From Rhodothermales bacterium (GTDB lineage Bacteria; Bacteroidota; Rhodothermia; Rhodothermales; VXPQ01), in NCBI GenBank assembly GCA_040904565.1, contig JBBDTI010000031.1, positions 83,831 through 147,830 on the forward strand: 64,000 nucleotides of DNA, given 5' to 3'. Position numbers and translations under genes: made by a program. A model generated the notes under the pieces. It saw nothing but the letters and a program-made list of their open reading frames with translations. It searched no databases and was not told the DNA's origin. Position 1 is the stretch's first letter. Every line of letters starts with the position of its first letter. Positions 43,933 through 47,755 of this stretch are shown here, in pieces.

Positions 43933-44241
43933 CTAATTATGCTCGGATCCGTCAGATCCACCACCGTTGTCGCCATCAAGACCACTCTTGTTGTGTTCAG
44001 AGCCGTCGCTGCCGCCGCCGTTATCGCCTTTATTATGTTCGGATCCGTCGCTTCCCCCGCCGTTGTCTGTCGCATTGTGCTCGGAGCCATCACTTCCGCC
44101 GCCGTTGTCACCACCCGCATATGCTTCGATAGACGGTCCGCTAAGCGTGTCCGCGGCACATCCTGTTAGAATCGTACTGGCGCCTGCTACGAGCGCGAGG
44201 GACATGAATGCTGAGAGAATGGCCTGTGTAAGTCGTTTCAT
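43933..44241 (-). CDS. Small lipoprotein/prepeptide with four copies of DNGGGSDGSEHN (candidate multi-core signal peptide precursor)
   Basis: AGGAG 5 nt before the ATG. Signal peptide MKRLTQAILSAFMSLALVAGASTILTGC (lipobox Cys28). Repeats differ only at synonymous positions in this frame. Confidence 0.85.
   Translation of the reverse strand: MKRLTQAILSAFMSLALVAGASTILTGCAADTLSGPSIEAYAGGDNGGGSDGSEHNATDNGGGSDGSEHNKGDNGGGSDGSEHNKSGLDGDNGGGSDGSEHN
43936..44109 (-). repeat. Four imperfect 36-nt coding repeats (44074-44109, 44032-44067, 43990-44025, 43936-43971)
   Basis: Read directly from the sequence. Periods are 42, 42 and 54 nt, and all four encode DNGGGSDGSEHN. Confidence 0.95.
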
Positions 44242-44530
44242 GGTGACTCCTGACTTAAATGTAAGTGCTCCTACCTGGCAAGAAGATAGACGCACCTCCC
44301 AGGGCAGTCAAGGTTCGTCGCGCCGCAAATAGCCACTTTTTAAGGGTTTGTCGGGAATGAGTTGTCATCCGTCGCATGGGTGTCAATGAGCTTACGACGG
44401 TGAGGTTATTGAGCGTCCAGATGACCAGTAATAGGCCTTAATATTTGTCGCATTTGGCTGATACTAGACGGAGCAGAGGCCTCATCGTCGTCCGCTTTGG
44501 GGCCGTCATCCTAAGACCATCCAAGCTATA

Positions 44531-47500
44531 ATGCCGCATTTATTGCGTCACGTCCTGGCTTTTGCATGCCTGTTGTCGATCCCGGCACAGGCTCAAGTAG
44601 GTGGGGTACATCTTTCTGAAAGCGGTCACCCGTTCTATTTGGAGCACTTTCCTCCGCACGAGTATGGTGCGTATCCGCAGAATTGGAGCGTTGTCCAGGA
44701 CGTTAGCGGTCGCATCTTCGTCGGCAATTACGATGGCATTCTCGTCTATGACGGCGTTTCGTGGGATCTCGTCGCCACACCGACAAATACGACGGCCCGG
44801 TCGCTGGCGGTTGGTGATGACGGAATTGTCTATGTCGGACTCCAGGGGGATTTCGGATATCTCGCACCCGATTCAGTTGGATCCTATGCCTATACATCTC
44901 TCGCTAATAGGCTGGCACAGAGCGAACGAGAGTTCCGTGATGTGTGGGCGACGCATGTGGTTCCTGGTGCCGTCTATTTCCAGGCAGCGAGCCGACTTAT
45001 CCGATGGGACGGCGAATCTTTTCATGTTTGGCAGAGCGAAGAGGGCTTTCACACCTCGTTCGAAGTGGACGGCGAGATTTACGTACGCGAGATCGGTAGG
45101 GGACTATTGTGCGTCAAGGATGACGACCTAACGGTCGTTCCCGGTGGAGACCATTTTAGCGATACACGCATTTATGTTCTCGATGATCTGGCTGACGGAA
45201 GCCTGCTGGTCGGGACGCAGGAGAAGGGATTCCTTGTCTACGACGGATCAGGTTTTCAGTCTTTTGAGACAGAAGCAGACGCCTATCTCGCGAACCACCG
45301 GCTTTATCATGGCACGGTCTTGCCTAATGGATACATCGCACTCGGCCTCCTCGATGGCGGTGGTCTAATTATACTCGATCCTAACGGACGTATTAGCGCT
45401 CACTACACCGAAGAGTCAGGTCTCCCAGACGGCTGGATCAACTTCCTATATCGAGACGCGCAGGGTGGACTTTGGTTGGCTCTTAATAATCGTGGCGTTG
45501 TTCGTATAGATCCTTTATCCCACATCACAAAGTTTGAGGCGGAGAGTGGACTGGACGGTGTAGTCGGTGATCTACATCTCTACGAAGACAGCCTATACGT
45601 TGCTGGCAGCACCGGTCTGTTTAGATTAAATCCGTCAAGATTATCACACGAGAGAGCTCGCCTGGTAAAGGTTGATGGGATTCACGTCGCCACGTCGCTT
45701 GCTCAAATACACGACAAGTTGGTCGTCGCGAGTCACGACGATATACGCGTCCTGGATGGTACGAGGATTGAATTTGTCGCTGAGGGGACGTTCTATAGCG
45801 TCGCCGTCTCCAGTGCGTATCCGGATCGATTTTATGCGGGGTCAAAGACCGGCGTGGCGCTTTTTGAATTGCGCGACGGAGTATGGAATATTGAACCTGA
45901 CTTTGTTCGGATTAATGATGAGGTCCGAAGGCTTGTCGAGGGGGATGATGGCACGCTCTGGATTGCGAGTCGTTCAAATCGTGTGTACCGAGTCGACACC
46001 TTTAGTGGTAAGAGTAAGATCCGGGACGTCACTCCTTCCGACCATGTGATCAATCGGACGAGCTTGCTGAAAAACATATATGGCCGCACGTACTTACTCG
46101 GTGAATCGGGACCCGTCATTCTAGACGATGGTGGAGAAGCGTTATCTACCAGGGATCGAGAAGTTGCACGCATACTATCTGCCTCGACTGACTCACTTCT
46201 TTACCTCGGGCACTCACCGGACGGTAGACTATGGCGAGTCTATGCAGATCGCGTTGAAATCACGGCGTGTGGTCTAGCGTGCTCCACCAATGTGCCAGAG
46301 GTTCTCAGATATCCCGAATGGTCTGGTCCGGTCAACGTCCACGTCGATTCTGTGGGCGTTGCATGGATTTCTACACGGAGCACGCTGCTACGGTATGATC
46401 CATCGATCGAGACTGAAAAATCGTACGACGCGATATTCCCTGCGATGCTTCGCCGGGTTAGGACAATCGATACGAATCGCCTACTCTATGGCGGTGTTTG
46501 GGATGAAGAGCGTGATATCGCCGAGCCACTCTTCCAAGATCTACCGTTCAGCCAGAATGCACTCCGCTTCGAGTTCGCGTTTCCCAGCTACAACGATCCG
46601 GAAGAAAACGAATTCCAATACTGGCTGGAGGGGCGTGAAGCAGGCTGGTCGGCGTGGACGAAGGAGACCGGCAAGAATTACACGAACCTCTTCGAGGGAA
46701 CCTATCGCTTCCACATCCGGGGGCGCAACGCGCAGGGTTACGTGTCGCCCGCGAGCACGTACACGTTCACCGTCTTGCCGCCGTGGTACCGGTCGAACTG
46801 GGCGTACGGTATATACGTGCTGGGTCTCCTCGGCATGGGTCTGTTCGTTCGCCGCCACCAGAGAATGGTTGTGGAAAATCGACGTGCCAGGAAGCAGGCG
46901 AAAGAACTGGCTCGAGAACGCCAGGTCAACGAGCGACTGCAGGATCTCAACAAGCGTCTCGAGCAGGCCAACGAGACGCTGCGTCAGGCCGATCGGCTCA
47001 AGGATGAGTTCCTGGCCAATACGTCCCACGAGCTGCGTACGCCGCTCACGGGAATTCTGGGCTGCTCCGCCATTCTTCGCGAGGAGGTGGACGAAGACCA
47101 TCGCGAGTTCGTAAACATGATCGACGAGAATGGGCAACGTCTCCTGAATACGCTCGACTCGCTGCTCGACCTCGCACGTCTCAGGGCCGGCCTCATGGAG
47201 CTCGACTTCAAGGAGATCGATCTGGGTGTCAAGGCCGAAAGCGTCTTGCATACGTACACGTCCCTTGCTGCCAGCAAGGGGATCGATATCGACGTGGAGG
47301 CCGAAGGTGACGTAACCGGCTGGTTCGACGATCACTGCGTCGACTGCATCCTGAATAACCTCGTCGGCAACGCGGTGAAATTCACCGATGAAGGCCGCGT
47401 ACAGGTCACTATCTCAGGGACGGGAGAAGGCGTTGTGATTCGCGTACTGGATACCGGCGTCGGTATCGACGAAGAGTTCATGCCCTTCCTTTTCGATGAG

Positions 47501-47755
47501 TTCAAGCAGGAGTCTACGGGGCTGACACGGTCACATGAAGGGAACGGTCTGGGCCTCGCCGTGACCGCGCGCATTGTCGATCTGATGGGGGGCGACATCG
47601 ACGTGCAAAGTACGAAACACGTGGGTACGACCTTTACGATTCGCCTACCGCTGGAGCAGGTGCGTCCCGAGTATGCAGGGCATGGCGACGGCTTGTCGTC
47701 CAATGGCGTAGTCGTGGAGGCCTCCGAGCCCGGAGCTGAAGCCCCGTCTGCATGA
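44531..47755 (+). CDS. Sensor histidine kinase with periplasmic beta-propeller and Y_Y_Y domains (no receiver domain)
   Basis: Signal peptide ending AQAQ, propeller repeats (QDVSGRIFVGNYDG, YRDAQGGLWLA), Y_Y_Y (FQYWLEG...YTNLFEGTYRFHIRG), PPWYR + TM, H-box FLANTSHELRTPL, NLVGNAVKFT, DTGVGI, GNGLGL. Confidence 0.93.
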   Translation: MPHLLRHVLAFACLLSIPAQAQVGGVHLSESGHPFYLEHFPPHEYGAYPQNWSVVQDVSGRIFVGNYDGILVYDGVSWDLVATPTNTTARSLAVGDDGIVYVGLQGDFGYLAPDSVGSYAYTSLANRLAQSEREFRDVWATHVVPGAVYFQAASRLIRWDGESFHVWQSEEGFHTSFEVDGEIYVREIGRGLLCVKDDDLTVVPGGDHFSDTRIYVLDDLADGSLLVGTQEKGFLVYDGSGFQSFETEADAYLANHRLYHGTVLPNGYIALGLLDGGGLIILDPNGRISAHYTEESGLPDGWINFLYRDAQGGLWLALNNRGVVRIDPLSHITKFEAESGLDGVVGDLHLYEDSLYVAGSTGLFRLNPSRLSHERARLVKVDGIHVATSLAQIHDKLVVASHDDIRVLDGTRIEFVAEGTFYSVAVSSAYPDRFYAGSKTGVALFELRDGVWNIEPDFVRINDEVRRLVEGDDGTLWIASRSNRVYRVDTFSGKSKIRDVTPSDHVINRTSLLKNIYGRTYLLGESGPVILDDGGEALSTRDREVARILSASTDSLLYLGHSPDGRLWRVYADRVEITACGLACSTNVPEVLRYPEWSGPVNVHVDSVGVAWISTRSTLLRYDPSIETEKSYDAIFPAMLRRVRTIDTNRLLYGGVWDEERDIAEPLFQDLPFSQNALRFEFAFPSYNDPEENEFQYWLEGREAGWSAWTKETGKNYTNLFEGTYRFHIRGRNAQGYVSPASTYTFTVLPPWYRSNWAYGIYVLGLLGMGLFVRRHQRMVVENRRARKQAKELARERQVNERLQDLNKRLEQANETLRQADRLKDEFLANTSHELRTPLTGILGCSAILREEVDEDHREFVNMIDENGQRLLNTLDSLLDLARLRAGLMELDFKEIDLGVKAESVLHTYTSLAASKGIDIDVEAEGDVTGWFDDHCVDCILNNLVGNAVKFTDEGRVQVTISGTGEGVVIRVLDTGVGIDEEFMPFLFDEFKQESTGLTRSHEGNGLGLAVTARIVDLMGGDIDVQSTKHVGTTFTIRLPLEQVRPEYAGHGDGLSSNGVVVEASEPGAEAPSA

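Follow-up and report, generated by a model that had tools for sequence, protein, structure and literature searches.

A small lipoprotein with a terminal His-Asn motif and a divergently encoded propeller sensor kinase in the Rhodothermales

What is the role of a very small exported protein whose gene lies head-to-head with that of a large sensor kinase? The question is raised by a stretch of 64,000 nucleotides from a Rhodothermales bacterium (the window; contig JBBDTI010000031.1 of assembly GCA_040904565.1, positions 83,831 to 147,830 of the forward strand), in which a 102-residue putative lipoprotein carrying four exact copies of the 12-residue unit DNGGGSDGSEHN is encoded divergently from a histidine kinase with a periplasmic propeller and Y_Y_Y sensor, the two genes being separated by 289 bp (44242-44530). 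The original prediction, made from the sequence of the window, had described this arrangement and proposed that the small protein is a precursor cut into peptides that the neighbouring kinase senses. Translation and Pfam confirmed the arrangement. Below we describe the selection acting on the repeated unit, the family to which the small protein belongs and the conservation of the gene pair across the order, and then weigh what the lipoprotein may do.

The small gene and the HN-motif family

The four DNGGGSDGSEHN units (residues 45-56, 59-70, 73-84 and 91-102, the final unit forming the C-terminus) are separated by the spacers AT, KG and KSGLDG. Their amino acids are identical, and their nucleotide sequences differ pairwise at 6, 7, 7, 7, 6 and 12 of the 36 positions; every one of these differences is synonymous and none is non-synonymous. 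One of the Ser codons alternates between the AGY and TCN sets, a change that is impossible by a single synonymous step. Because recent duplication or gene conversion would have erased the synonymous differences, the pattern shows that purifying selection acts on the peptide encoded by each unit. Relatives gave the same picture: two 17-residue units in genome G020 differ at 12 of 51 nucleotides with the same synonymous pattern, and in G025, G039 and G022 the repeat units have diverged at several synonymous positions and at no amino acid. The repeats are not kept identical in an overlapping open reading frame (ORF) of 121 aa on the opposite strand. We conclude that the small ORF is a real gene under selection.

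The encoded protein consists of a basic and hydrophobic signal sequence, the lipobox, a 16-residue linker and the unit array, which the TRF program detected at 43991-44109 with a period of 42 and a score of 138. A 120-aa form starting at an upstream GTG is also present among the listed ORFs; the ATG at 44241 was favoured as the start because an AGGAG box, conserved in three aligned relatives, lies 5 nt upstream of it. In the alignment concerned, of the window with three genomes of the same taxonomic family, both hexamers of a sigma-70-like site (TTGACT and TATCTT) fall partly within invariant columns, and this site is a candidate for the promoter of the small gene. A second conserved block, CTTAATATTT...GGCTGATACTA, is absent from the consensus-scan listing and is a candidate promoter or operator for the kinase. 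The lipobox fits the signal peptidase II pattern [LVI][ASTVI][GAS]C; in alignments of 17 and of 54 family members its Cys never varies and conservation of the Gly before it is 90% or higher, and Cys28 is the predicted lipidated first residue of the mature protein. Comparison of the small protein with Pfam and NCBIfam gave no credible family match, and the top feature match in the ESM Atlas (0.78) led to no named family; the Atlas model had a pLDDT of 0.52.

Around kinase orthologues in 40 relatives, one genome after another proved to have a small ORF, divergent from the kinase, for a lipoprotein whose glycine-rich units end in HN; we refer to these proteins as the HN-motif family. A profile of 17 members was run on 285 genomes of the order and at E<=1e-4 matched 72 of them, spread over many taxonomic families (27/58 genomes in f27, 7/7 in f3, 6/8 in f17, 7/35 in f5, 5/13 in f6 and 4/7 in f2; codes in f, g and G denote families, genera and genomes). 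Several of the genomes with a match, among them G020, G137, G194 and G216, are complete or nearly so. This search scored only about 17 candidates per genome and so misses members: the one in G039 was overlooked, and inspection upstream of 20 further kinases gave six more. In 151 genomes of sister orders of the same class the family was not found, and there were just two weak matches inside long frames. When a 54-member profile was compared with 1.84 billion representative proteins, 174 matches were obtained at E<=0.001, nearly all of them 51-150 aa in length, and a word-indexed search of 5.8 billion proteins returned six, one named 'hypothetical protein' and five with no name. The literature that was searched mentions neither the family nor any peptide or lipoprotein acting as an input to Rhodothermales propeller kinases. 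As judged from these databases and this literature, the HN-motif lipoproteins are an undescribed family.

The mature parts are short (about 30-157 residues, median 50), acidic and almost devoid of large hydrophobic residues, and 69 distinct mature sequences gave a composition of G 17%, N 10%, S 10%, D 10%, T 9%, E 7% and H 4%. The lipobox Cys opens a conserved C-x-x-[DN]-x-[LIV]-x-G-P element, which is followed by an acidic linker and then by the motif. The dipeptide [H/R]-N lies inside the last 13 residues in 64 of the 69 sequences; composition-preserving shuffles gave a mean of 4.9 sequences with such a terminal dipeptide, and none of 2000 shuffles reached 64. A longer, ancestral-looking form of the motif, N-G-G-G-S-T-x-x-G-x-x-H-N, recurs in several families. 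The motif, the one element specific to the family, is glycine-rich, and its units are 6-21 residues long; a member may have a single motif, a pair that is not identical (frequent in f27) or 2-10 exact units, an exact repeat of at least 6 aa being present in 29 of the 69 sequences. The motif His is replaced by Arg in g86, parts of f17 and G033 and by Tyr in G207, while G023 has H-Q; in variants of f2, g87 and f17 a Cys pair adjoins the motif. Amplification in f17 is at the level of the gene, with tandem small-lipoprotein genes that reach at least five copies in G125. In three f17 genomes (G119, G123 and G125) a second small ORF for an exported protein, unrelated to the lipoproteins and lacking a lipobox, separates their genes from the kinase and likewise ends in H-N-L. 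Its presence points to the C-terminal motif as the functional element.

Several further features of these loci were recorded. The f17 arrays lie at loci L192 (G125:C11 ~65358-66937), L199 (G123:C12 49680-50435) and L182 (G119:C294 4663-5226), and next to the array there is a gene for a FecR-like anti-sigma protein of 386-391 aa, in which Pfam recognised FecR and FecR_C. The post-Cys element, in the form C..[LIV]xGP, was found in 4 of 164 crude lipoprotein candidates of at least 150 aa in the window's own genome (C20:5815(+), C23:6014(-), C67:96353(+) and C91:61936(+)), a frequency that ruled it out as a generic lipoprotein signal. It is also carried by the six false positives of the profile described below; one possibility is that it marks a subclass of lipoproteins for sorting or tethering.

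Pairing with the kinase across the order

In the kinase, Pfam recognised Reg_prop (29.7 bits, cut-off 20.4) and Y_Y_Y (27.7 bits, cut-off 26.6) in the sensor and HisKA (E 1.4e-18) and HATPase_c (E 2.2e-26) in the core, and the residues of the H-box (H833 ELRTP), N box and G box are invariant across nine orthologues, as expected of a catalytically competent core. The predicted periplasmic sensor of about 730 residues is separated from the cytoplasmic core by the hydrophobic stretch at residues ~757-773. The Pfam scan found no receiver, helix-turn-helix (HTH) or DNA-binding domain, and the protein stops about 30 aa past HATPase_c. In a sequence search of the PDB with the sensor, matches were confined to the Y_Y_Y part (4a2l, 3ott, 3va6 and 3v9f, E 1.9e-14 to 2.5e-10).

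Pairing of the two genes was determined by fetching 1.5-3 kb around each small-ORF match and running tblastn with the N-terminal sensor of the kinase. Six profile matches (L189, L196, L197, L198, L202 and L203), which were long lipoproteins or, in one case, a 53-aa ORF lacking the motif, and none of which had a kinase within 3 kb, were excluded before counting. At 65 of the 75 loci counted (79 ORFs) the kinase sensor was adjacent, and all 65 pairs were divergent. Of the remaining ten, four are cut off by the end of the contig where the kinase would lie, and six show no sensor in 2.4 kb or more of sequence on that side; a doubtful member, L195 (G265; SDGTNQG repeats, no His, no kinase), was counted among these six. 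The spacer between the genes was mostly ~80-670 bp, and 0.9-2.1 kb in f17. Across 41 genomes, the matches to the small ORF at E<1e-5 were all beside the kinase except for one on a 4.4-kb contig. The expectation in the original prediction that homologous kinases would be flanked by small lipoprotein ORFs with HN-ending repeats was therefore borne out, and the repeat ORF was for the most part not seen in unrelated contexts, which had been named as an argument against a link.

In most genomes the pair is part of a long syntenic block (PrmC, thioredoxin-like, GT4, small ORF, kinase, PlsC-like acyltransferase, HtrA, chorismate synthase (AroC)). There are breaks in this block that leave the pair intact. 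In G029 all of the other neighbours seen in the window are gone and the kinase and small ORF are still joined, the pair being located between nucleoside symporter and amidohydrolase genes, with a GMC oxidoreductase gene also flanking it. The genes upstream of the pair differ in G039, the HtrA side is inverted in G019, and a 5-kb insertion in G006 lies beyond the small ORF and not between it and the kinase. As regards the records themselves, the array of the G029 small ORF (L011/L033, G029:C28) is broken by a run of N, and in four metagenome-assembled genomes (G001, G002, G005 and G003) contigs break in or beside the region of the two genes.

The kinases themselves also group with the presence of the small ORF. 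A quick maximum-likelihood tree placed every one of the 11 kinases that accompany a small ORF in a single 13-row clade (SH-aLRT 100) and 10 other propeller kinases outside it; the G034 and G027 kinases are inside this clade yet lack the small ORF. Genus g8 has neither gene (small ORF 0/12 genomes, sensor 0/12), and family f24 has each of them in one genome of 38, which in both cases is G085. A locus search among genome contigs identified, within the 80 matches listed, two orthologues with the small ORF, L033 (G029) and L034 (G092), and the remaining loci were used as negative examples. Upstream of a paralogous propeller kinase at L018 (G031:C1, ~550-1370 of the locus) there are several tandem DNA repeats, with long repetitive ORFs in more than one frame on both strands. 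These results indicate that the two-gene unit is real and conserved across the order. The features of the pair in the window are collected in Table 1.

Table 1. Coordinates of the small lipoprotein gene, the kinase gene and the elements between them (positions in the window).
Feature	Position	Strand	Basis and remarks
Small lipoprotein gene	43933-44241	-	102 aa; stop codon 43933-43935; founding member of the HN-motif family
Four exact DNGGGSDGSEHN units, residues 45-102	43936-44109	-	translation and TRF
Signal peptide with lipobox L-T-G-C (residues 25-28)	44158-44241	-	Cys28 is codon 44158-44160
AGGAG ribosome-binding site	44247-44251	-	5 nt 5' of the ATG of the small gene; invariant columns in four-sequence alignment
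Sigma-70-like promoter candidate (TTGACT, 17 nt, TATCTT), small gene	44283-44311	-	consensus scan
Conserved intergenic block CTTAATATTT ... GGCTGATACTA	44437-44466	+	invariant columns; ~65 nt 5' of the kinase start
Histidine kinase	44531-47755	+	1074 aa; Pfam; N-terminal signal/anchor, periplasmic sensor ~22-755, transmembrane helix, cytoplasmic core
Y_Y_Y domain, residues 686-748	46586-46774	+	Pfam; membrane-proximal end of the sensor
Transmembrane helix, residues ~757-773	46799-46849	+	hydrophobic stretch
Catalytic core, HisKA (824-887) and HATPase_c (940-1042)	47000-47656	+	Pfam

The description of the kinase as an orphan holds for its immediate surroundings, as the nearest receiver-domain gene (51779-52243) is ~4 kb downstream. 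It encodes a stand-alone receiver protein of 154 aa and is followed by the gene for a REC-PAS-HisKA-HATPase kinase of 524 aa (the two together at 51779-53862, plus strand); G004, G006, G033 and G019 retain the two genes in this block, and their products are candidates for the missing phosphorelay partners. On the other side, the conserved block beside the small ORF includes the GT4 glycosyltransferase gene (42225-43502, minus strand), and an alpha-glucan phosphorylase-like gene (DUF3417 and Phosphorylase) is located at 38504-40681 (minus strand). We found no link between these two genes and the small protein.

Possible roles of the lipoprotein

We tentatively prefer a reading in which the lipoprotein is an extracytoplasmic partner of the kinase, either as a tethered ligand or as a modulator. 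The protein would be anchored in a membrane so as to face the periplasm, and its short, acidic and probably disordered tail, being flexible, would offer the propeller sensor a short linear motif, [H/R]-N; presentation of the motif would then set or modulate the activity of the kinase, in the manner of the accessory proteins CpxP, ExoR and NlpE. In favour of this reading are the purifying selection on the units, the terminal motif shared across the family, the divergent orientation of all 65 pairs, the cohesion of the pair where its surroundings have changed, the single clade of ORF-associated kinases, the joint absence of both genes in g8 and in all but one genome of f24, and the second H-N-L ORF of f17. 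A partner model is also plausible in kind because the binding of envelope accessory proteins to sensor kinases is an established mechanism (PMC4160245, PMC10659215).

A number of observations weigh against such a partnership. Adjacency alone is weak evidence because the neighbourhood forms a long syntenic block in most genomes, and much of the pairing could be inherited gene order; moreover, the surveyed genomes are kin and not independent samples. In three g87 genomes (G198, G199 and G200) the small ORF is kept and the kinase, glycosyltransferase and acyltransferase have been deleted from the block; elsewhere these genomes have only paralogous propeller kinases, 29-30% identical and without such an ORF. 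The adjacent kinase lacks residues ~127-783 in G280, and in G262 it is reduced to a remnant matching 979-1057, and a search of that genome, which is 85% complete, revealed no propeller sensor at E<=1e-10; in both cases the small ORF and its motif are intact. As it is intact in these five genomes, the small ORF is not strictly dependent on the neighbouring kinase. In addition, a second copy in G025, on the 4.4-kb contig, has no kinase within 2.4 kb, and kinases of f10 and f19, with sensors 36-39% identical and frames of ~1200 aa or more, stand in another context with no small ORF. The g87 loci (L160, L167 and L193, in G199, G200 and G198, respectively) have the small ORF ~100-350 bp head-to-head with the gene for an HtrA-family protease, and the tail of the protein consists of the motif followed by a Cys pair.

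Covariation between repeat and propeller had been suggested in the original prediction as a check: when the motif class (H or R before Asn) was compared with 58 kinase sensors, no convincing column emerged, which also counts against the partner reading. The top columns were conservative or tracked phylogeny, and 4 of 591 had changed convergently in g86 and f17. Kinase residue 95 (~44813-44815) is Asp in 28 H-class rows and Ser in both R-class lineages (g86, and f17 except G119); as the sole otherwise conserved convergent column it is a weak covariation lead, not evidence. Complex prediction with kinase residues 22-755 and lipoprotein residues 29-102 gave scores of 0.00 and 0.16 (mark 0.32), and weighs neither way on binding.

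The main alternative, which we consider rather unlikely, is that the lipoprotein has an envelope function of its own and does not act on the sensor, being co-regulated with the kinase, a target of its pathway or adjacent to it by inherited gene order. Persistence of the small ORF and its motif where the kinase is deleted or decayed, as in the five genomes above, is what this would predict, and the long conserved syntenic block also fits, as does the appearance of separate conserved promoter-like blocks for the two genes in place of one shared operator. Against this alternative, the pair holds together in G029 where everything else around it has changed, and in G039 where its upstream side has, 65 pairs out of 65 are divergent, and the locus has no response-regulator gene that would account for the adjacency of a target. 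The second small exported ORF of f17, with its H-N-L at the same kinase, also speaks against it.

That the protein is a multi-copy precursor of HN-ending peptides, which after cleavage and release the kinase would sense as autoinducers or as a signal of kin recognition, seems to us improbable. Identical units under purifying selection are a property of multi-copy peptide precursors, a candidate receptor is encoded alongside, the copy number ranges from 1 to ~10 (with the tandem gene copies of f17 in addition), the sequence of the unit varies by lineage as the terminal [H/R]-N is retained, and the Cys pair beside the motif in some variants could form a loop. However, the lipobox implies membrane anchoring and not release, and intercellular signalling would need two crossings of the outer membrane. 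The processing into peptides ending in GSEHN that the original prediction proposed found no support, as the spacers (AT, KG, KSGLDG and others) share no common cleavage site and no protease, exporter or modifying enzyme accompanies the pair. Its multi-copy design stands for some lineages and fails as a feature of the family, since 40 of the 69 distinct members have no exact repeat and many have one motif or two that are non-identical. Retention of the small ORF in five genomes without an intact kinase is a further difficulty. Both what was first observed at this locus and what was predicted for its relatives were right; the release of peptides is a proposal, and another mechanism is more likely.

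Still less probable is a lipoprotein that binds metal or other cations, in which the tail rich in His, Asp, Glu and Asn would buffer or present an ion and the kinase would sense its loading or be unrelated. ZraP is a small exported metal-binding modulator encoded next to a kinase, the composition of the mature parts given above would suit such a role, and the single-motif variants in f2, g87 and f17 add two Cys beside the His. Many members, however, have just one His in the mature protein, and in g86 and g68 the change of the motif His to Arg leaves none. No match to metal-binding families was found in Pfam or NCBIfam, and the units, compared by eye, fit neither EF-hand nor RTX patterns.

Finally, the absence of any functional pairing, that is, chance or historical adjacency of a fast-evolving, low-complexity ORF, would account for the low complexity of the sequence and for the six database matches in the word-indexed search, but is very improbable and close to refuted by the synonymous-only divergence between units, the conserved ribosome-binding site and promoter boxes, the 174 matches at E<=0.001 among 1.84 billion representative proteins and the paired, divergent arrangement at 65 of 71 testable loci.

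Four more specific ideas were considered and set aside. The final residues differ among members (N, L, D, S, G, Y, Q, C), which led us to reject a reading of the C-terminus by a PDZ domain of the nearby HtrA protein. The Bacteroidota O-glycosylation motif D-[ST]-[hydrophobic] occurs within the N-terminal C-x-x-D-x-L-x-G-P in only some members, an N-glycosylation sequon after the motif Asn is inconsistent across members, and intein-like self-cleavage at His-Asn requires a fold that is absent here.

If the motif binds the sensor, as the partner reading would have it, the locus would provide a defined peptide-receptor pair for structural work, along with a set of variants that have co-diverged in nature. 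Among the Bacteroidota and their relatives, propeller/Y_Y_Y sensors are abundant, and we know of no input for the receiver-less propeller kinases found outside sugar loci; a small lipoprotein, a motif and a kinase, held head-to-head across most families of one order, make a compact and experimentally tractable candidate. Should the released-peptide alternative prove true, with the peptides cut from one multi-copy precursor or from the products of tandem genes, the Rhodothermales would have a lineage-specific system of peptide signalling or kin recognition, and a class of sensor known for glycans would gain its first ligand of protein origin. As the family was nearly unannotated, very small low-complexity ORFs beside sensors deserve to be called systematically.

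Comparison with known systems

The general kind of arrangement, a small exported partner encoded beside a sensor kinase, is already known. The small exported protein CpxP binds the periplasmic sensor of the kinase CpxA and modulates it (PMC4160245), and ExoR and the lipoproteins LppA and JspA are described as envelope modulators of the sensor kinase ExoS (PMC10659215). With regard to layout, the statement that diderm bacteria offer no described example was thus too wide. The locus resembles CpxP and ZraP in having a gene for a small exported protein divergent from that of a kinase, here across 289 bp in the window and in all 65 pairs. Both cpxP and zraP are likewise divergent from their two-component operons, and DegP removes CpxP; at the present locus an HtrA-family protease gene (48804-50468) is situated two genes downstream of the kinase. 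The proteins themselves are of different kinds. Searches of Pfam and NCBIfam did not place the small protein in a family like that of CpxP, ZraP and Spy, and whereas CpxP and ZraP are folded, helical and soluble, it is a putative lipoprotein with a short low-complexity tail. The CpxA-type sensor is PAS-like, in contrast to the propeller and Y_Y_Y sensor found here, which also has no response regulator at its locus.

Lipoproteins that provide inputs to kinases are a second point of reference, as in NlpE-CpxA, QseG-QseE and RcsF. Like them and LppA/JspA, the HN-motif proteins would be lipid-anchored envelope proteins that inform an inner-membrane kinase. The known modulators are folded, measure 100-250 aa, lack a repeated motif at the terminus and are mostly not encoded head-to-head with their kinase, and no sequence relation between them and the HN-motif family was found through Pfam or NCBIfam.

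On the side of the kinase, the closest architecture is that of the Bacteroides hybrid sensors (4a2l/4a2m, 3ott, 3va6, 3v9f), which share the periplasmic Reg_prop and Y_Y_Y domains and whose known ligands are glycans. The kinase described here differs from the Bacteroidota hybrid two-component systems in having no fused receiver and no AraC-type HTH. Its neighbours within ~8 kb (PrmC, thioredoxin-like, GT4, acyltransferase, HtrA, AroC, REC protein and REC-PAS kinase) include no polysaccharide-utilisation genes (SusC/SusD-like, glycoside hydrolases), as the first inspection of the window had noted.

Short or multi-copy peptide signals include yeast alpha-factor, the plant CLE peptides, which are 12-13 aa long and in many cases have HN as their last residues, and the Gram-positive Phr and agr peptides. 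The HN-motif proteins have in common with these a signal sequence and identical short units under purifying selection and, with the bacterial systems, a candidate receptor nearby; as in agr, com and Phr, the putative precursor is encoded beside it. They differ in carrying a lipobox and not a cleavable secretory signal, in lacking conserved processing sites and in the class of their candidate receptor, and, unlike agr, com and Phr, no dedicated processing or export gene accompanies the pair. They differ also from ribosomally synthesised and post-translationally modified peptides, in that no modifying enzymes are encoded beside the small gene, the neighbours being housekeeping genes or, in G029, those for the symporter, GMC oxidoreductase and amidohydrolase. 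What is new here is the combination of a micro-lipoprotein, a terminal and often amplified His-Asn motif, a receiver-less propeller/Y_Y_Y kinase and the restriction of the whole to one order.

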